Assembly: GCA_003165795.1 (NCBI GenBank)
Contig: PMWW01000146.1
Coordinates: forward strand, 11,489-75,488
Source of the DNA: Acidobacteriaceae bacterium
GTDB lineage: Bacteria > Acidobacteriota > Terriglobia > Terriglobales > Acidobacteriaceae
Length of the DNA stretch: 64,000 bases
Reading direction: 5' to 3'
The notes under the pieces are model-generated. The model had not been told where the DNA came from. It saw only the letters and a program-made list of their open reading frames with translations, and did no database searches. The stretch's first letter is position 1. The number at the start of each line of letters is the position of its first letter. This document shows, in pieces, positions 12,500-32,887 of this stretch. A program made the translations under genes and the position numbers.

Positions 12500-13296
12500 A
12501 ACACGCTCTCTTTCTCGGTGCAGTACGACTGCAATGTTTTCTGAAGCGATCGGAATGGATTGAGTAAATCCGGATAGCCCAGGTCGACCAGCGCTACACC
12601 CTGGCGGTCAGCCCGAGCTATGCGTACATCGAGGGGAATGGTGCCGAGCAGGTGCTCGGCCCCGAACTCGGAGGCGATCCAGCGGCTATCTTCTTCCGGA
12701 TCGGCGGTCTTGTTGAGCACCACGCCGAAGCGTCCGATGCCCAGATCGGCGGACATCTGGCGGACCCGCTCGGCGGTCTCCACGCTGCGCTTGCCCGGCT
12801 CGACCACCACCATCATTAAGTCCACACCCATGGCTGTGCCGCGCCCCAGGTGCTCGATGCCGGCTTCCATGTCGAGGATCACGATCTCGCCGTGGCGCAG
12901 TACCAGATGCGAGACCAGGCTTTTCAGCAGCACGCTCTCCGGACAGGCGCAGCCGCCGAGAGCGTGCTCCACCGCGCCCAGCACCAGCAGGTCGACTCCC
13001 TTGTAATGGACGGCGTATTTCTCGGCGATATCGGCAACTTCAGGATTGATCTTGAACATCTGCCCGAACTGCTTGACTTTGGCGCCGGTGCGCTCTTCGA
13101 TCAGCTTGCGTTCGGTGGAAATGGTGTGGACTTGAGAACGGAGTTCGGAAGGTAAGCCGATGGCGGAAGCCAGATTTGCGTCGGGGTCGGCGTCAACTGC
13201 TAATACCCGGTGACCGTCGGCCGCATACAGCCTGGCCAGGGTTCCCGCCACGGTGGACTTTCCGACTCCGCCTTTGCCTGAGATTGCAAGTTTCAT
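12496..13296 (-). CDS. Second CooC/AcsF-type Ni-insertion ATPase
   Basis: 266 aa. GKGGVGKST Walker A, CxC motif LGGCACPES. The start overlaps the GntR stop (13293-13296). Confidence 0.85.
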   Translation of the reverse strand: MKLAISGKGGVGKSTVAGTLARLYAADGHRVLAVDADPDANLASAIGLPSELRSQVHTISTERKLIEERTGAKVKQFGQMFKINPEVADIAEKYAVHYKGVDLLVLGAVEHALGGCACPESVLLKSLVSHLVLRHGEIVILDMEAGIEHLGRGTAMGVDLMMVVVEPGKRSVETAERVRQMSADLGIGRFGVVLNKTADPEEDSRWIASEFGAEHLLGTIPLDVRIARADRQGVALVDLGYPDLLNPFRSLQKTLQSYCTEKESVL

Positions 13297-14129
13297 GGTT
13301 CGAGCCTCGATCGAGCAATGTGTATGCCGTACTGCTTGCGGCGGCGCCGGGACGACACCGAAGTGTTCTTCCGGGCGCTCTCCTGGTCGCGGATGACCTG
13401 TTCAACGGCCAGCATGGCGAAGCCGACGATTTCTTCGGAAGAACGCCGCGCCGCCAGTGGATTGCGCTGTTCGATGGCCTCGGTCAGCTTGCGGTACTCT
13501 TCCAGTTCGAGGGCCACGGATGCCGGCAAGAGCAAGGTGTAGGAAAGAGCCACCCGATAAGGGGCGTGGATGGTGGCATTCAATTGCCGGAACAACGGAT
13601 TGTGCGAGGCGGCAACCACCGCAGTGTGATACTGCAGGTCCGCGTCGATGGCCCCTTCCAGGTCCTGAGCTGCCAGGATCTCCAGCCGCCGCGACAGACA
13701 CTGACGAATGCAGGCAATCTCCTCCTGATCGGCGCGCAGCGCGGCGAATCCGGAAGCAATCGGTTCAATCGCCAAGCGGACTTCGCACAGGTCGCGCAGG
13801 AAGCGCGCATCCGGTTTCAGCTCCGACTGCCAGGCGAGAATGTCGGGATCGAGTTGGTTCCAGTCGGTGCGGGGCCGGGCGCGCGTCCCGGAGCGGGGAC
13901 GCACCTGCACCATGCCCTTGTTTTCTAAAACCTTGACCGCTTCGCGCAGGATGCTGCGGCTTACCCCCACCTGTTTACACAATTCCGCTTCGTTGGGGAA
14001 GGCGATCTGTTGCTCGTTCCGCTCCGCTTGGATGACCTGCAGGGCCAAGGCCCGGGTCACCCGGCTGTGCAGACTTTCGGTGGTGTCGAGCTGCGCGAAT
14101 AATGTAGCGGGTCCCTTCATCTCAGTCAT
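13293..14129 (-). CDS. GntR-family transcriptional regulator with FCD (FadR C-terminal) ligand domain
   Basis: 278 aa. Winged helix-turn-helix ...FPNEAELCKQVGVSRSILREAVKVLENKGMVQVRPRSGT... followed by an all-helical FCD-like domain. First gene of the acs operon. Confidence 0.85.
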   Translation of the reverse strand: MTEMKGPATLFAQLDTTESLHSRVTRALALQVIQAERNEQQIAFPNEAELCKQVGVSRSILREAVKVLENKGMVQVRPRSGTRARPRTDWNQLDPDILAWQSELKPDARFLRDLCEVRLAIEPIASGFAALRADQEEIACIRQCLSRRLEILAAQDLEGAIDADLQYHTAVVAASHNPLFRQLNATIHAPYRVALSYTLLLPASVALELEEYRKLTEAIEQRNPLAARRSSEEIVGFAMLAVEQVIRDQESARKNTSVSSRRRRKQYGIHIARSRLEP

Positions 14130-14171
14130 ATCATATGCTCAGTTTAGAGGTGCACAAGAGAAATCGCGGCG

Positions 14172-14235
14172 CCGACTACAAAAATTTGCCGCCTTTCCCA
14201 AAATGGGAATTAAGCTCTTGACGCCTTGTAGTCGG
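14172..14235 (-). promoter_or_regulatory. Nested inverted repeats upstream of the gntR/acs operon: outer arms CCGACTACAA / TTGTAGTCGG, inner palindrome TTCCCA-AAA-TGGGAA
   Basis: Outer 10-nt arms at 14172-14181 and 14226-14235. Inner 6-3-6 palindrome at 14195-14209, 66-80 nt upstream of the gntR ATG (14129). Confidence 0.5.
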
Positions 14236-14322
14236 GGCTTTGACTTCGCATCCCCCATCCCGACGTATTTCTGGATGGTTGTCAAGTACCAAATCAGGAA
14301 ATCGTCAGAGATGACATTCCGC

Positions 14323-17300
14323 CTAAAACGAGAAGCGCAGCGCCAGCTGTTGCACTCGCGGAGTGGTGAGAGTGGCGCCATAGACGCCGAACGAACCGCT
14401 GGTGGTCAGGTTCTGCAGCGAGTTCAGCGGATTCACGTCAAAGCGCACGGAGTTGGTAACGTTGTAAACATCCCAGGCAAATTGCATTCCCCAGCGTTCG
14501 CTTAGCTTCCAGTTCTTGGCCAGGCGAGCATCGATTCCGAAGTAGCCGTCGCCGCGGAAGTTGTTGCGCTCGCCGGCCTCGCCGGGATAGGGGTTTTGCA
14601 GGCTGGCCAATGCCTCAGCCGGATTGGAGAACACATTGGGAGCGCCGTTGGCGCCAATGTAGGTGCCGGTCTGGATGGCTCCGGTTTCAATCATGTTACT
14701 TTTTTCCAGCCAATTGGTCCCCCACCCCGCTCCGCTGATAACGCTGAACGGCAAACCGCTGGTCCAGCGGCCTACGCCCGACAGTTGCCAGCCGCCGATA
14801 ATTCGGTCCCATCCCGCACTGGAATGGCTGCCCAGCAGTTTGCCTTTGCCGAACGGCAAGTCGACAACCCAGCTGGCGGTAATCAGGTGGCGAATGTCAT
14901 AGTCAGAAGGACCATAGCTCAGCCCGGGATTCCAGGCATTCAGGATTGCGCTAAAACTGCTGCCCACCGTGCTGCCGGTGCTGGACGAGTACACGGTGCG
15001 CTCGTCGTCGGAGCCCATGTCCAACGATTTGGAGTAGGTGTAGCTGAGCTCCATTTGCATTCCGTGGCGCATGGCGTGGCGCAACACCAACTGTCCACCG
15101 TTGTAATTGCTATCGCCGATGGAGGCCCATGTGTACATGCTGGCAAACTGGGTGGGCCAGAAGCGTCCAGTCTGGCCGCCGCATCCGGGATAGCAAAGGA
15201 TATCGAGCGCGTAGAGCGCGCCGGTCTCGTTGCCCAGGTTATATTTCCAAATGCTGTTGTAGATGTTCTGGGTGGCGCTCATGCCGCCGGTCGCCGCGTC
15301 GGGGAACATGTCCTCGAAATAGGGGATGGGCGCGACGGTGGTCTGGCCGGCATAGCCGTCCTTGGAAAGTTGGGTCGCAGCCGAGAAATAATCCTGACCC
15401 GACTTGGGATCGACCAGATCGAGCGGCTGCGCCAGGTCGATCTGCTGCAGCTGATGACGGCCGAATCGCCCCAGATAAGCCGCCTCCAGAACGAATCCAT
15501 CCGGCAGTTGGCGCTGCCACGAAACATTCACCACGTGCGAATAAGGAGTTTGCATCTGGCTATCGATTCCGTGGGTGATGGCGAATCCGGTAGTCAGCGG
15601 GTCGGTGGGCGACAGCGCCGGATAGCTGACGACCTGTTCCGGAGTGCCAGTCAAGTCAGGAATATTGTGCGCGCCGGTGTAGCGGGGCGAGGTATCGGGC
15701 GTCAGCACATTGGTTGGATTGGTAATGCTGTCGCTCAGACCGTAGGAGCCGTACTGATCGAAGAGATTGACGATGCTTTCGCCGAAGTGGTCGTAATACT
15801 TGCCATAACCGGCGCGCAGCACGCTGTCGCCGGGATTGCCGAAAAGTTTGTGCCAGAACCCCTGTCCCACATTGGGGGAGTAGGCAAATGACAAGTGCGG
15901 GGCCAGATTGGCCTTCTGCATGGGCCAATACGGCTGCAGTCCGCGGGCCTGGCCGGACGGCGCGAAAGAAATGTAGGGCTGCACACTGTTGCCTAGCGCG
16001 GCTTGCGCCCCGCGGGTTTCAAACCACTGGTAGAGATCGGTGGTGGGTTGCACCTGCTGGCCATTGACTTCGTAGGGAGTCTGCAACAGGGTGTGCCGCA
16101 GTCCGTAGTTGACGGTCAGGTTGGGCGAGATGCGCCAGGAGTCCTGCGCATAGTACTCGAATTCGTTGTTCTTGAAATCGCGATCGATCATCGCGCCCGG
16201 TGGCAACAGGGTTCCCGTCTTCCCGTTGGCCGATACCTGATAGTTCGATTGCGAGGTCACATAGTCCAGCAGGCCGGCCAGGTTGGTCATCGAGAAGTTA
16301 TAGGAGCCGGCAAAACTGTTATCGACCGAGGGAAATCCAAACACGGTGGGATCGAAGCTTCCGCCCACGCCGACGATGCCGGCATCGACCAGCGCGTAGG
16401 AATTGGTGACCGCGGAATTGTAGGACAGCGCGTTGCTCTGGTTCTGATTGTGGATGAGGCGATAGTTAGCGCCGAACTGAATGGTGTGACGGGAATGCGT
16501 CCAAGTCAGGTCATCGACCAGATTTTGCACCGGCACATCGACGATGGTGGTCCGAGTCTGGGCATCAATGGTGCTCATGCCGTAGAAATTGGCGTACGAG
16601 CCTTGCCCGATGCCGTAGCTGGAATAGCCTTGGCGGATATAGCTGTAACGCAGGCTGTTCATCAGGGTGGGAGAGATCGCAGAGTTAAGCCCCACGGCCA
16701 GTCCCTTGCTGTCGCTCGAGTTGTTGGAGCTGGCCGGCTGCCCGGGAAACTGTGGTACTCCCAAGGAGCTGTCTCTTTGCAGATTGCCGCGGATGAACAA
16801 CCAGTTCCGGTTGGACAGCGCGTAGTCAACCCGGGTGATGTACGTATTCAGCGAGGCGGGGTCCGGTGCCGACCAGGTGTAGGAAGCGGTATTCAGACCA
16901 TCGCCGGCAGAATAGCCGTTAGGCAGCGGATATTGCTTAAAGGCCGCCAGCGAATAAGGGTCGGCTCCTGGTCCCCAAGGGCAAGTGCCAGTCCCAGTGC
17001 AGTTCGGGTCCATCGAGGCAATTTGCGCGGCGTTTAAGGTGACGATCTGAGTGGCCTCATTGCTGGTGCTGGGATATTTGATTTCCCCGGCGCGTAGTGA
17101 CGCGGTAGGCACAATCATCGTCATCTGCTGGTTTTCGTCGATCTTCTCGCCCTCGTAGGTGGTAAAGAAGAACAGCTTGTTTTTCTTGATGGGACCGCCG
17201 AGCGATGCGCCGTAGGCGTTGCGATCCAGCGTGCCGGGAACGTTGGGCAAGCCTTGCGCCAGCTCCGCCTGCTTGTTGAACCAATCGTTGGCGGGAGTGA

Positions 17301-18096
17301 TTAAGTTTCGGGTGCGTCCGTAGATGCTGCCGTGGAAGTCGTTGGTGCCGCTCTTAGTGGCAATGTTGATTTGCGCTCCCGACGAGCGGCCCGTGTCGGC
17401 GTTGAAGCCGGCGGTGCTCACGCGGAACTCCTGCACCGAGTCGAGGGTGGAGCGCAGCACTCCGGTGAAAGCGTAGCCGCGCACCTGGTCATTGTTGTCC
17501 AAGCCGTCCAAGGTGGAGTTGTTTTGATCGGACCGGGCCCCGGCGGCGCTGCCGCTGCGGCTGTCGTGACTTTGATCGTTGTGCAGGCCGAGATACAAAA
17601 CTCCGGGCTGCAGGCTGAGCAGGTCCGGAATGTCGCCCTCGACCGGCAGCGCCAGAATGGTGGCGCTGTCAAAGGCATTGCCCATGGTGGCGTCGGTGGA
17701 GTTCAGAGAAGGCGCCTGGCCGCTGACACTGACAGTGGTGGCCGCGGCTTCCACCGGCAGGGAAAAATTGAGGGTCAACGGCTGATTGATCAGCAGCTCA
17801 ATCGACTGCGATTGCTTAGCAAATCCCGGGGCCTCGACCGCAATGGCGTACTTCCCGGGAGGAAGCTGCTGAAACTGATACGTTCCGTTGTTGCCGGCAA
17901 CGTGAGTTTCCGTAAAACCATTTTCGCTGTTGACCAATGAAACTCTTGCCGAGGCAATCACCGCTCCTGAGGGATCGGAAATCGTTCCTCGCAAAGATGT
18001 GCTTGGGCTTTGCGCTGCGGCGAATGGTGCGGACAACAAAACAAGGACGCCCAGGATGGATGTTAATGCGAAGCGGGGCCGTGCTGTCAAAACCAA
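14323..18096 (-). CDS. Large TonB-dependent receptor with N-terminal carboxypeptidase-regulatory-like (CarboxypepD_reg) domain
   Basis: 1257 aa. Signal peptide, then SLRGTISDPSGAVIASARVSLVN...GTYQFQQLPPGKYAI (CarboxypepD_reg), a plug-like segment, a long beta-barrel and a C-terminal ...LALRFSF. Starts 3 nt after the btuD stop. Confidence 0.8.
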   Translation of the reverse strand: MVLTARPRFALTSILGVLVLLSAPFAAAQSPSTSLRGTISDPSGAVIASARVSLVNSENGFTETHVAGNNGTYQFQQLPPGKYAIAVEAPGFAKQSQSIELLINQPLTLNFSLPVEAAATTVSVSGQAPSLNSTDATMGNAFDSATILALPVEGDIPDLLSLQPGVLYLGLHNDQSHDSRSGSAAGARSDQNNSTLDGLDNNDQVRGYAFTGVLRSTLDSVQEFRVSTAGFNADTGRSSGAQINIATKSGTNDFHGSIYGRTRNLITPANDWFNKQAELAQGLPNVPGTLDRNAYGASLGGPIKKNKLFFFTTYEGEKIDENQQMTMIVPTASLRAGEIKYPSTSNEATQIVTLNAAQIASMDPNCTGTGTCPWGPGADPYSLAAFKQYPLPNGYSAGDGLNTASYTWSAPDPASLNTYITRVDYALSNRNWLFIRGNLQRDSSLGVPQFPGQPASSNNSSDSKGLAVGLNSAISPTLMNSLRYSYIRQGYSSYGIGQGSYANFYGMSTIDAQTRTTIVDVPVQNLVDDLTWTHSRHTIQFGANYRLIHNQNQSNALSYNSAVTNSYALVDAGIVGVGGSFDPTVFGFPSVDNSFAGSYNFSMTNLAGLLDYVTSQSNYQVSANGKTGTLLPPGAMIDRDFKNNEFEYYAQDSWRISPNLTVNYGLRHTLLQTPYEVNGQQVQPTTDLYQWFETRGAQAALGNSVQPYISFAPSGQARGLQPYWPMQKANLAPHLSFAYSPNVGQGFWHKLFGNPGDSVLRAGYGKYYDHFGESIVNLFDQYGSYGLSDSITNPTNVLTPDTSPRYTGAHNIPDLTGTPEQVVSYPALSPTDPLTTGFAITHGIDSQMQTPYSHVVNVSWQRQLPDGFVLEAAYLGRFGRHQLQQIDLAQPLDLVDPKSGQDYFSAATQLSKDGYAGQTTVAPIPYFEDMFPDAATGGMSATQNIYNSIWKYNLGNETGALYALDILCYPGCGGQTGRFWPTQFASMYTWASIGDSNYNGGQLVLRHAMRHGMQMELSYTYSKSLDMGSDDERTVYSSSTGSTVGSSFSAILNAWNPGLSYGPSDYDIRHLITASWVVDLPFGKGKLLGSHSSAGWDRIIGGWQLSGVGRWTSGLPFSVISGAGWGTNWLEKSNMIETGAIQTGTYIGANGAPNVFSNPAEALASLQNPYPGEAGERNNFRGDGYFGIDARLAKNWKLSERWGMQFAWDVYNVTNSVRFDVNPLNSLQNLTTSGSFGVYGATLTTPRVQQLALRFSF

Positions 18097-25042: not shown

Positions 25043-25225
25043 AACTTCCCCCTCGGAAGTTCGTTAGGTTTTTCACCGGGCCGGTCTCCTGACTCAGGAC
25101 CCAACCTGTCACCTTCCCGCTGGGCGCAGTGGTTGTCGACAGTTGGTGCTTCGTCCTTTACAGTTGCGGGGCAGTGGCGGATTCTTACCGCGCTTCCCAT
25201 ACACCCTGTGAATTCAGTGGTTGTC
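25043..25225 (-). promoter_or_regulatory. Cobalamin riboswitch 1 with an RBS-sequestering helix, upstream of the btuB-like receptor
   Basis: The minus strand reads ...GGGAAGCGCGGTAAGAATCCGCCACTGCCCCGCAACTGTAAAGG...CCACTGCGCCCAGCGGGAAGGTGAC...AGTCAGGAGACCGGCC (B12 box). It is followed by AACTTCC-GAGGG-GGAAGTT abutting the ATG (25043-25061). Confidence 0.85.
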
Positions 25226-28040: not shown

Positions 28041-28164
28041 ACTTCATCCCGCGCACAAGTCACGTCTCGGACGGGAAAGCTCGTGCCGCAAATCTTCCAG
28101 AAGACCCTAGCGAGCAGGTCGTCAAGATGCCGATTGACCCTCCCATCGAGACCAAATCGGACAA

Positions 28165-28317
28165 TAGGTAAGTGCCTGGCCGGAATCCTGACTTGCGCCT
28201 CAGCGATCCGGAACCGCCTTCCTAGAACCTTTAGCTCCAGTGGCTTGCTGGTCGGACCTCCGCGCTTACAGTTGCGGGGCAGTGGCGGATTTTCACCGCG
28301 CTTCTCAACTGCCAGAC
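28165..28317 (-). promoter_or_regulatory. Cobalamin riboswitch 2, leader of the cobU-cbiA-btuF operon
   Basis: The minus strand reads ...GAGAAGCGCGGTGAAAATCCGCCACTGCCCCGCAACTGTAAGCG...GCCACTGGAGCTAAAGGTTCTAGGAAGGCGG...AAGTCAGGATTCCGGCC (B12 box). The core is near-identical to riboswitch 1. Confidence 0.85.
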
Positions 28318-28323
28318 ATTCCG

Positions 28324-28352
28324 GTTATAGCTCCCGGAAAATGCGGTGTCAA
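28324..28352 (-). promoter_or_regulatory. Sigma70-like promoter P1 (TTGACA-17-TATAAC) just upstream of riboswitch 2
   Basis: The minus strand reads TTGACA ccgcattttccgggagc TATAAC. The -35 is at 28347-28352 and the -10 at 28324-28329. Confidence 0.6.
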
Positions 28353-28390
28353 TCTTCGTCATATGATCGGCGTACAACTTGAGGGTAGCT

Positions 28391-28405
28391 TTCCCATATT
28401 GGGAA
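28391..28405. promoter_or_regulatory. Palindrome TTCCCA-TAT-TGGGAA between tandem promoters P2 and P1
   Basis: Perfect 6-3-6 inverted repeat with half-sites identical to the palindrome at 14195-14209 upstream of the acs operon. Confidence 0.5.
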
Positions 28406-28421: not shown

Positions 28422-28450
28422 AGTATAGCTCTCGGAAAAGCGGCGTTCAA
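28422..28450 (-). promoter_or_regulatory. Sigma70-like promoter P2 (TTGAAC-17-TATACT), a duplicated copy about 98 nt upstream of P1
   Basis: The minus strand reads TTGAAC gccgcttttccgagagc TATACT. The spacer is homologous to the P1 spacer. The surrounding unit of about 100 nt is an imperfect tandem duplication. Confidence 0.5.
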
Positions 28451-28487
28451 CTATCGTCGTAGGATTGTCGCTGCAAGCCGCAAGATG

Positions 28488-28520
28488 GGAAGTTCCGCTT
28501 TCTGCAAAGTAGGAAGTTCC
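28488..28520. promoter_or_regulatory. Two copies of the palindromic GGAAGTTCC box (within the repeated GGAAGTTCCGCTTT), 24 nt apart, upstream of P2
   Basis: GGAAGTTCC at 28488-28496 and 28512-28520. Each is a 4-1-4 inverted repeat. Confidence 0.4.
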
Positions 28521-28668
28521 GCTTTGCTAAGACAATACAACTGCTAACATCGCGCAGACCGCCCAAGGAGAACTTGCTCCAATGGAAGCGCACTTTTTCT
28601 GCCTTCGCAAGGCTAACGAGCAGAAATTAAGATCTGCCGGTCCCACGCTCCCCTTTCTTTGTTTTGTC

Positions 28669-32120: not shown

Positions 32121-32542
32121 AACGCATATCAACTTAGTTTGCCGTGGATCTCATCAGCGCAGGCGGTGATTTCCTGGATCCAACGATTGAGATCGTGAGC
32201 GCCGTAGCCATGCAATCGCTGCCGCTACAGGGCGGGAAATTTGTCGGTATTGTCATAATCATCGAATGGCGGTCTTCCAAGATCCTGATGGCGGGGAAAT
32301 TTGCTCATCAAACGTAAGGATCGGAATGAAGATCACATGCACGATGTCTAACCGTCACAGACAGGCGGGAAACTTCCTATTATAGCCCACGACAGTTCTT
32401 CGATTTGGATTTGCAGTATCTCGCGCAGGCGCAGGGAACGCCGTGAGAATCGGCGACAGTGGCGCTGCTGTAACTGGCTACGAAACCTCAAGTAACCACT
32501 CGGCCGTCCGGGGAAGGCGAGGCGTAGGTCCGAAGCCAGAAG

Positions 32543-32887
32543 TCAGAACAACGGTCGGCGCGACCAACTTGGAAACTTCGCTCCAAAGGAGACCGCTTTT
32601 GTGTATTTCCCCTGCGTATTCCCCTCGATCCGGGATACCCACGAGTTTAGCAAGGGGCCGGAGCAACTCCGGCCGCCACGCAATTCGGACACTACCTGTC
32701 TTCGACACTCGACGCGCCGCTTTACTTTGATGGCTGGCACCGGTCTTTCGACGAAAGTCGAGATGACGATTATCGCGTCGGAATCAACCGCAATTGCGGC
32801 CACAACTTCGTCTCTCTCAACGGATCGTAGCAAGCGGCCGAACAGGTCGCCCCGTATCAGCGGATTAGTAGTTTCACTAATGAGCAT
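32543..32887 (-). pseudogene. Degenerate PIN-domain (VapC-like) toxin remnant
   Basis: The N-terminus LISETTNPLIRGD resembles the PIN motif llDTNvli, and ...DEVVAAIAVDSDAIIVISTFVERPVPAIKV resembles the PIN C-terminus. About 70 central residues are missing and the tail is unrelated. Confidence 0.3.

Follow-up and report, generated by a model that had tools for sequence, protein, structure and literature searches.

Escherichia coli CRP is a global dimeric regulator that works from upstream class I-type sites of the form TGTGA-N6-TCACA, and activator sites of this type have their centres at helical-phase positions of about -61.5, -71.5, -82.5 and -92.5. FadR-subfamily GntR operators share a GT-Nx-AC core, the E. 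coli IclR box is a 15-bp palindrome (TGGAAATNATTTCCA), and CusR/CopR recognise a palindromic box. BvgA, a regulator of the NarL/FixJ type, occupies inverted TTTCCTA heptads at about -88, and OmpR-family proteins usually bind direct repeats. Here we describe a palindrome, TTCCCR-WWW-YGGGAA, that occurs upstream of two operons in a 64,000-nucleotide (nt) stretch of contig PMWW01000146.1 of an Acidobacteriaceae bacterium (GCA_003165795.1): the gntR-acs operon of carbon monoxide dehydrogenase/acetyl-CoA synthase (CODH/ACS) and the cobU operon of vitamin B12 (cobalamin) salvage. We call this whole stretch the window (C35:11489-75488 of its own genome, which is labelled G000). Judged by comparative sequence, the palindrome is a genuine cis-regulatory element shared by the acs and B12-salvage promoters. 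Its cognate protein is probably a transcription factor with two-fold symmetry whose gene lies elsewhere and which is shared across the genus, rather than the GntR regulator encoded beside it.

Each of these systems resembles the palindrome in part. Like the class I-type sites of CRP, it is a two-fold symmetric palindrome of 15-17 bp whose half-site centres are about 10 bp apart; like CRP working alongside local repressors, it is present at about 20 promoter sites per genome, with centres 5' of the -35 (relative to predicted starts) and paired with a pathway-specific operator or riboswitch. Unlike that of CRP, however, its sequence is TTCCC-N5-GGGAA, which is unrelated and has an odd spacer, and a Crp-like gene that neighbours one site is not conserved in the genus. 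As with the operators of FadR/FCD regulators (FadR, PdhR, LldR), it is short and lies in the promoter region of a GntR regulator, but it lacks the GT...AC core, does not track that regulator across genomes and is not kept 5' of the regulator's orthologues. With BvgA- and CusR-type sites it shares a TTCC...GGAA-type inverted repeat well 5' of the core promoter and a candidate response regulator that may regulate its own gene; that candidate is of the OmpR type, whereas BvgA is of the NarL/FixJ type, and we take the resemblance as a lead drawn from sequence alone. The E. coli IclR box has the same 6-N3-6 length and GGAA/TTCC content, and the palindrome stands in the iclR/aceA gap of some congeners, but its half-sites are oppositely arranged and the universal elements of that gap are two TGTTCA-N6-TGAACA boxes.

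The two copies in the window are located as follows:

14195..14209, no strand assigned: palindrome site 1, in the 193-nt gap between the outer-membrane barrel gene (14323-18096, last of the corrinoid block) and gntR
28391..28405, no strand assigned: palindrome site 2, 39 nt 5' of the -35 of the proximal cobU promoter

Site 1 (TTCCCAAAATGGGAA) is 66-80 nt 5' of the annotated gntR ATG (14129, minus strand), and site 2 (TTCCCATATTGGGAA) falls between two sigma70-like promoters 5' of a cobalamin riboswitch and cobU. Between 212 and 30966 every gene is encoded on the minus strand, in the order cobU-cobQ-btuF, cobalamin riboswitch, TonB receptor-cobT-cobS-cobC-btuC-btuD-1257-amino-acid outer-membrane barrel and, past the 193-nt gap with site 1, gntR (FCD family)-cooC-mesB-like-cooC-cooS-acsB fusion-acsC-RACo-homocysteine methyltransferase. 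With up to one mismatch, TTCCCANNNTGGGAA has exactly two matches in the window, which are sites 1 and 2; dinucleotide shuffles of the window contain a mean of 0.08 matches, and none of 100 reaches two. The whole assembly (4.95 Mb, 208 contigs) holds three exact matches at spacer 3, two of them the window sites, where about 0.37 would be expected (Poisson P(>=3) = 0.006), and at each of the other spacers between 0 and 11 there are 0-1 exact matches. The first-pass annotation had placed both palindromes and their distances to the genes correctly, and the genome scan that it proposed finds the motif at other than random frequency.

Both sites are conserved islands inside otherwise variable intergenic DNA (10 congeneric genomes). 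GntR orthologues of 75-88% identity occur in 10 of 36 congeners sampled, and all 10 carry the palindrome at the identical position 5' of gntR, with the consensus TTCCCRTTTYGGGAA in gene orientation; site 1 has this form in further Koribacteraceae metagenome-assembled genomes (MAGs) as well. CobU orthologues are present in 12 congeners. The 10 with gntR keep (T/G)TCCCAATAYGGGAA 362-410 nt 5' of cobU, its centre about 45 bp from the -35 of a TTGACA-17-TATAAC promoter, whereas G001 and G024, which have cobU and are without gntR/acs and cooS, keep the promoter and riboswitch and lack the palindrome. It is this same-position conservation in gntR-bearing congeners, together with its absence in G001 and G024, that underlies the case for a shared regulatory element, and the shared operator suspected in the first-pass annotation is borne out by the comparison of orthologous intergenic regions. 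A third copy of the palindrome, TTCCCAGAATGGGCT, lies 5' of a corrinoid-protein gene, and with it all three promoters of the acs/B12 supercluster (gntR-acs, cobU and the corrinoid-protein gene) are marked. Counted by orthologous promoter, the site is kept at gntR in 11/11 genomes, at cobU in 11/11 gntR-plus genomes and at the corrinoid-protein gene in most of the 8 genomes compared; elsewhere it is kept at a response-regulator gene (30/30), a GMC oxidoreductase gene (6), an OsmC gene (4) and, in subclades, aceA.

The palindrome also extends well beyond this cluster. A symmetrised position weight matrix built from 22 orthologous sites (cut-off at least 15 bits) finds 19 intergenic and 4 coding matches in G000 on a crude map of open reading frames (ORFs), whereas 25 column-permuted palindromic control matrices of the same composition give a mean of 2.4 intergenic matches (maximum 6) and 13 coding ones. 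Because the permuted controls yield so few intergenic matches, these scans indicate that the motif defines a regulon of about 20 sites, rather than two, and the split between intergenic and coding DNA is not that of a sequence scattered at random across both. TTCCCRNNNYGGGAA is found in every member of the genus set, which comprises 41 genomes of uncultured Koribacteraceae (soil and peat MAGs; 11 gntR-plus and 30 gntR-minus), at 2-14 copies per genome (mean 6.9) against 0.9 for the reversed control, an excess of about 7-fold. Genomes from other families of the class have about 3 matches each, with GC-rich, random centres like those of generic hairpins, whereas the centres are A/T-rich in the genus. 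Copy number per genome is similar with and without gntR (7.6 in the 11 gntR-plus genomes vs 6.6 in the 30 gntR-minus genomes; Mann-Whitney p = 0.43). In the gntR-minus genomes the sites stand in conserved promoter regions: the gap between iclR and isocitrate lyase (aceA), the region 5' of an OsmC-like gene, and the interval between a GMC oxidoreductase gene and a divergent gene for an AdhE-like aldehyde dehydrogenase or a wax-ester synthase (WS-DGAT). Further sites are at the fadR-lcfA and etfB promoters, which, like those of isocitrate lyase and the GMC oxidoreductase, belong to acyl- and acetyl-CoA metabolism.

From sequence, conservation, genome-wide distribution and co-occurrence we infer that a protein binds the palindrome, and the placement of the sites suggests how it could act. 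Measured from the centre of the palindrome to where the predicted -35 starts, and followed by the approximate position relative to the predicted transcription start site (TSS), the distances are:

OsmC: 35 bp, about -71
response regulator: 37 bp, about -73
cobU: 45 bp, about -82
gntR, proximal promoter: 46 bp, about -83
aceA: 63 bp, about -100

The palindrome always stands beside a local, pathway-specific element, be it a FadR box, IclR-type boxes, a B12 riboswitch or a GntR box. Because of the activator-like distances and this constant pairing with a local control element, we propose an upstream global co-regulator. Such a protein would bind 5' of the promoter in an activator-like geometry, recruit or modulate RNA polymerase, and integrate CODH/ACS and corrinoid salvage into a broader carbon and redox programme. 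GntR, acting through ATCATATGAT / TCATATGATATGA boxes at or next to core promoters, and the B12 riboswitch would then provide cluster- or pathway-specific control. The sign of regulation, like the TSSs, is a prediction here.

The promoter elements near the two sites, with the riboswitch, are:

28324..28352, minus strand: proximal sigma70-like promoter TTGACA-17-TATAAC feeding the riboswitch and cobU operon, read from the sequence with a predicted TSS
28161..28331, minus strand: second cobalamin riboswitch, in the cobU leader, a separate layer of cis-control (Rfam RF00174, 81.7 bits)
28422..28450, minus strand: distal promoter-like element TTGAAC-17-TATACT, in a 98-nt tandem duplication specific to G000
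14130..14157, minus strand: candidate proximal gntR promoter, with -35 TTGTGC (14152-14157; TTGGAC in congeners), 16-nt spacer and -10 TATGAT (14130-14135), proposed from the consensus
14258..14286, minus strand: alternative upstream element TTGACA (14281-14286)-17-CGGGAT (14258-14263), from the alignment, with a poor -10

Both hexamers of the proximal cobU promoter are kept in 13/13 cobU loci, the gntR-minus ones included, and the DNA 5' of the site 2 palindrome does not align in congeners. At gntR, the promoter scan at its threshold calls nothing at the candidate proximal promoter, and the alternative element is kept in 8 of 11 genomes.

Several points weigh against a global activator bound at the palindrome. 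The set of targets is heterogeneous and includes smc, a TonB-type receptor and secreted proteins. Both protein binding and the identity of the binder are inferred, and the TSSs are predicted from hexamers only, so that neither the placement at -70 to -100 nor the role as an activator is firm. With a proximal promoter so close to consensus, the need of cobU for an activator is not obvious. If TTGACA-17-CGGGAT is the real gntR promoter, site 1 would lie in the leader at about +42 to +56, which could be the position of a repressor or roadblock. In G000 only, the 98-nt duplication puts site 2 just 3' of the second promoter, where the palindrome would fall at about +10 to +24 of the distal element.

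The surroundings of the two sites hold further repeats. The cobU promoter unit is duplicated at 98-nt spacing (28326-28372 vs 28424-28470, 70% identity), an arrangement absent from congeners, and its distal copy has a degenerate CATATG box. Two copies of GCAAGATGGGAAGTTCCGCTTT lie at 28480-28525 and are absent from congeners, and GGAAGTTCCGCTTT occurs twice 5' of site 2 in G000 only. Between site 1 and the CATATG box of gntR, at 14144-14159, the 10 congeners carry a perfect palindrome, TTTGGA-CACT-TCCAAA, which is also readable as the -35 TTGGAC and has diverged in G000 to CTTGTGCACCTCTAAA. Two more cobalamin riboswitches are present in the window (32376-32570, plus strand; 25062-25223, minus strand), with no palindrome or CATATG box near either.

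Among candidate binders, an orphan OmpR-family response regulator (G000 C67:1-588, cut by the contig end) leads, though weakly; it would be global, regulate its own gene and read an inverted-repeat site, and we regard this identification as doubtful. The protein is found at 83-98% identity in 39 of the 41 genus genomes, and its gene is the only transcription-factor gene with a universally conserved site (TTCCCRAWTYGGNAN, about 37 bp 5' of a conserved TTGACG -35 in 30/30 loci). Orthologues of 71-74% identity in other genera have TTCCCGTTTYGGAAC-like sites upstream, and family genomes that lack an orthologue show background motif counts. Set against this, its closest solved relatives (DrrD, PrrA, BasR and PhoP) are direct-repeat binders, and G082, from another genus, has 11 A/T-centred sites while its closest response-regulator homologue is just 54% identical. 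A gene with a conserved site may also merely be a conserved target of another factor. The palindrome is an inverted repeat with no tandem direct repeat of 10-11 bp periodicity, and is not a typical OmpR box; this form lowers any claim to such a box, while a response regulator may bind it all the same. The promoter of this gene (C67:1-700; L137-L166) has in addition an inverted repeat, GTAACC-N7-GGTTAC, that closely follows the -10 and is strictly conserved, and in G002 the gene adjoins flgFGAHI.

Other regulators encoded near sites were considered as binders and set aside. Of the 41 genomes, only about 7 have a true orthologue of the Crp-like gene that adjoins a site on C74. The iclR gene, which diverges from that of isocitrate lyase, is universal in the genus, but the palindrome is in the gap only in subclades and is absent there in G000. 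In 27 of 30 genomes that gap (C60:52150-52400; L256-L285) holds a pair of TGTTCA-N6-TGAACA palindromes spaced by 75 bp; the pair flanks a TTGCCT-17-TATGGT promoter and probably represents the IclR operators. The FadR(YsiA)-like TetR protein has its own classic FadR box, TGAATGAGTACTCATTC. The region that encodes it together with a long-chain acyl-CoA synthetase (C54:26760-29640) has, 5' of the genes, this Bacillus-type box and two palindrome-like sites. The site next to a BlaI-like gene (C87) is not conserved beside its homologue. A tally of neighbour families over 83 flanking ORFs finds no dominant transcription-factor family, and no adjacent transcription factor emerged from the site contexts in other genera (G082, G142 and G079).

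Far less probable is the assignment made in the first-pass annotation, in which the adjacent FCD-family GntR binds the palindrome to regulate its own gene and would thereby co-control acs and cobU. The protein, and the boxes that bear on its own operator, are:

13293..14129, minus strand: FCD-family GntR regulator, whose gene opens the gntR-cooC-mesB-cooC-cooS-acs operon (Pfam FCD 3.5e-20, GntR 2.6e-10)
14122..14142, minus strand: CATATG box at gntR, CTGAGCATATGATATGACTGA, with 13-bp core GCATATGATATGA (14126-14138), probable GntR operator
28358..28369, minus strand: CATATG box at cobU, CGATCATATGAC (TGATCATATGATCA in most congeners), from the alignment and window scan

The assignment was a plausible one, given that site 1 lies in the promoter region of gntR's own operon, that site 2 is found only in cobU promoters of genomes with gntR/acs and that GntR is the sole transcription factor encoded in the cluster. 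However, the motif is equally frequent in the 30 gntR-minus genomes, at conserved promoters there, and these genomes have no close GntR paralogue (no hit at E <= 1e-20). The palindrome is absent 5' of GntR orthologues of 46-65% identity outside Koribacteraceae: it is missing at the conserved position in 19 loci (L224-L237 and L240-L244, from Terriglobia, Bryobacteraceae, Solibacteraceae and other MAGs), with L238, L239 and L245 uninformative. In addition, TTCCCAWWWTGGGAA is without the GT...AC core of the literature consensus. The distribution largely refutes GntR as the binder of the palindrome.

A different element, the CATATG box, follows GntR closely. With up to one mismatch, the 10-mer ATCATATGAT has two matches only in the window, at 14130-14139, directly adjoining the annotated gntR ATG, and at 28358-28367, close to the cobU -35, and its sole exact copy in G000 is at C35:8902-8911, 2.6 kb beyond the window start, in the corrinoid-protein gene promoter. 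In that promoter both TTCCCAGAATGGGCT and the exact ATCATATGAT are kept in eight genomes, the palindrome more loosely. The gene, for a 352-amino-acid corrinoid protein with a B12-binding domain, and its own promoter region occupy C35:7719-9206, which is 2.3-3.8 kb outside the window on the side of its start. All 11 gntR-plus genomes contain ATCATATGAT, as do only 6/30 gntR-minus genomes (Fisher p = 3.9e-6), and at least 17 of the 23 copies in gntR-plus genomes are identifiable at cobU or corrinoid-protein promoters. At gntR the box is 100% conserved in 11 genus genomes and overlaps both the annotated ATG (14129) and the TATGAT -10-like hexamer (14130-14135); at cobU it ends 5 nt 5' of the -35 in G000 and 3 nt in congeners. 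The CATATGATATG core is kept 5' of 33-35 of the 35 GntR orthologues aligned, which come from several families and reach down to 46% identity. It is part of a 13-bp palindrome, TCATAT-G-ATATGA, that is extended to CTGATCATATGATATGATCAG in some orthologues. Since the box overlaps the annotated ATG and precedes the start in distant orthologues, the true gntR start is probably the second ATG, at 14120.

Co-occurrence with the regulator and conservation at its orthologues, which fail for the TTCCC-N5-GGGAA palindrome, both hold for TCATAT-G-ATATGA, and GntR most likely binds this ATCATATGAT / TCATAT-G-ATATGA box and not the palindrome. The idea of co-control survives through this other element, because the box tracks GntR across families and is present at the gntR, cobU and corrinoid-protein promoters. 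The first-pass annotation would therefore stand in having GntR co-control CODH/ACS and corrinoid acquisition, by way of the ATCATATGAT / TCATATGATATGA box, and fall in having it do so by way of the palindrome; its pairing of regulator and operator is most likely corrected here. On the simplest reading, this GntR clade regulates its own expression via the CATATG box and controls corrinoid-dependent methyl-transfer genes. Literature searches for the palindrome, the CATATG box and the GntR of acs operons returned primer sequences or unrelated matches only.

The gene neighbourhood of this GntR varies with distance. The gntR-cooC-mesB-cooC synteny is kept down to 60% identity, and orthologues of 53-61% identity at L234-L236, L240 and L243 (Acidobacteriota/Bryobacteraceae MAGs) retain the box. 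Distant box-bearing orthologues adjoin mtaC/mtaB (methanol:corrinoid methyltransferase), homocysteine S-methyltransferase or formate-tetrahydrofolate ligase. Among the cooS orthologues of G002, G010, G013, G014 and G019, several have an in-frame stop or are split, which may reflect MAG assembly errors or gene decay.

That the palindrome acts as RNA, as a small leader hairpin or terminator (UUCCCA-UUU-UGGGAA) that in G000 forms the tip of a 64-nt hairpin lying between gntR and the cob operon, is more improbable still. The 64-nt stretch 14172-14235 does fold at -25.2 kcal/mol (z = -4.8), its outer stem GACTACAA/TTGTAGTC has one compensatory change in a four-genome subclade, and some changes at positions 6/10 turn A-U into G-C. 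But the outer stem is missing in most congeners, and since it is confined to that four-genome subclade, the large hairpin is best seen as a local elaboration. The minimal hairpins are weak, at -6.4 and -9.5 kcal/mol (z = -1.9 and -2.5), and it is the letters of the stem that are conserved, with no covariation: positions 6/10 are A.C in 8 of 22 sites (gene orientation), and pairs are broken without compensation in 29 of 30 response-regulator sites, where C3 never changes and its partner is G, A or C. No U-tract follows 3', no minus-strand terminator is called, and at cobU, aceA and OsmC the palindrome sits 5' of the conserved promoter. Two promoter readings were also rejected. For an ECF-sigma promoter with GGGAA(C) as its -35, information is about 0 at +2 to +45 after GGGAA across 94 non-redundant sites, and for a sigma-54 reading of the conserved TTGGACACTTCCAAAC there is no GG-N10-GC, judged by eye on the gntR alignment. 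A coincidence without function can be dismissed, for although about 16 perfect 6-N3-6 palindromes are expected per 64-kb window (64,000/4^6) and the post-hoc probability of such a pair is a few percent per spacer length, it is already refuted by the conserved position of both sites in 10 genomes and by the intergenic enrichment genome- and genus-wide.

Taking the palindrome as the operator of a factor encoded elsewhere and the CATATG box as that of GntR, we suggest tentatively, as possible rather than probable, that the unusual CODH/ACS-MesB 'methyl-to-methionine' operon and its dedicated block for B12 salvage and uptake are under two layers of control. The first would be a previously undescribed FCD-GntR clade with its TCATAT-G-ATATGA operator, a pair that appears conserved from Koribacteraceae to Bryobacteraceae, Solibacteraceae and some Alphaproteobacteria and that everywhere would adjoin corrinoid-dependent methyl-transfer genes (acs/CFeSP, MtaBC, homocysteine methyltransferase). 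The second would be a lineage-specific global regulator, maybe the orphan OmpR-type response regulator reading an inverted repeat atypically, which would couple the acs/B12 genes to glyoxylate-shunt, fatty-acid and alcohol/aldehyde metabolism.

Regulation in Acidobacteriota, notably in the uncultured Koribacteraceae of peat and soil, is almost unmapped, and this analysis contributes two testable operator motifs, one for a new regulon and one that forms a new pair with its probable GntR regulator; both are of an ordinary kind and useful for their details. The regulon motif, with its approximately 20 sites, would link CODH/ACS, B12 salvage, the glyoxylate shunt and lipid and alcohol oxidation. 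The GntR box marks corrinoid-dependent methyl-transfer operons across several families, and may be used to predict regulon members in MAGs. For an acs operon that lacks AcsE and bears MesB, wiring to both a cluster-specific GntR and a general regulator of carbon metabolism would help decide when the pathway runs.

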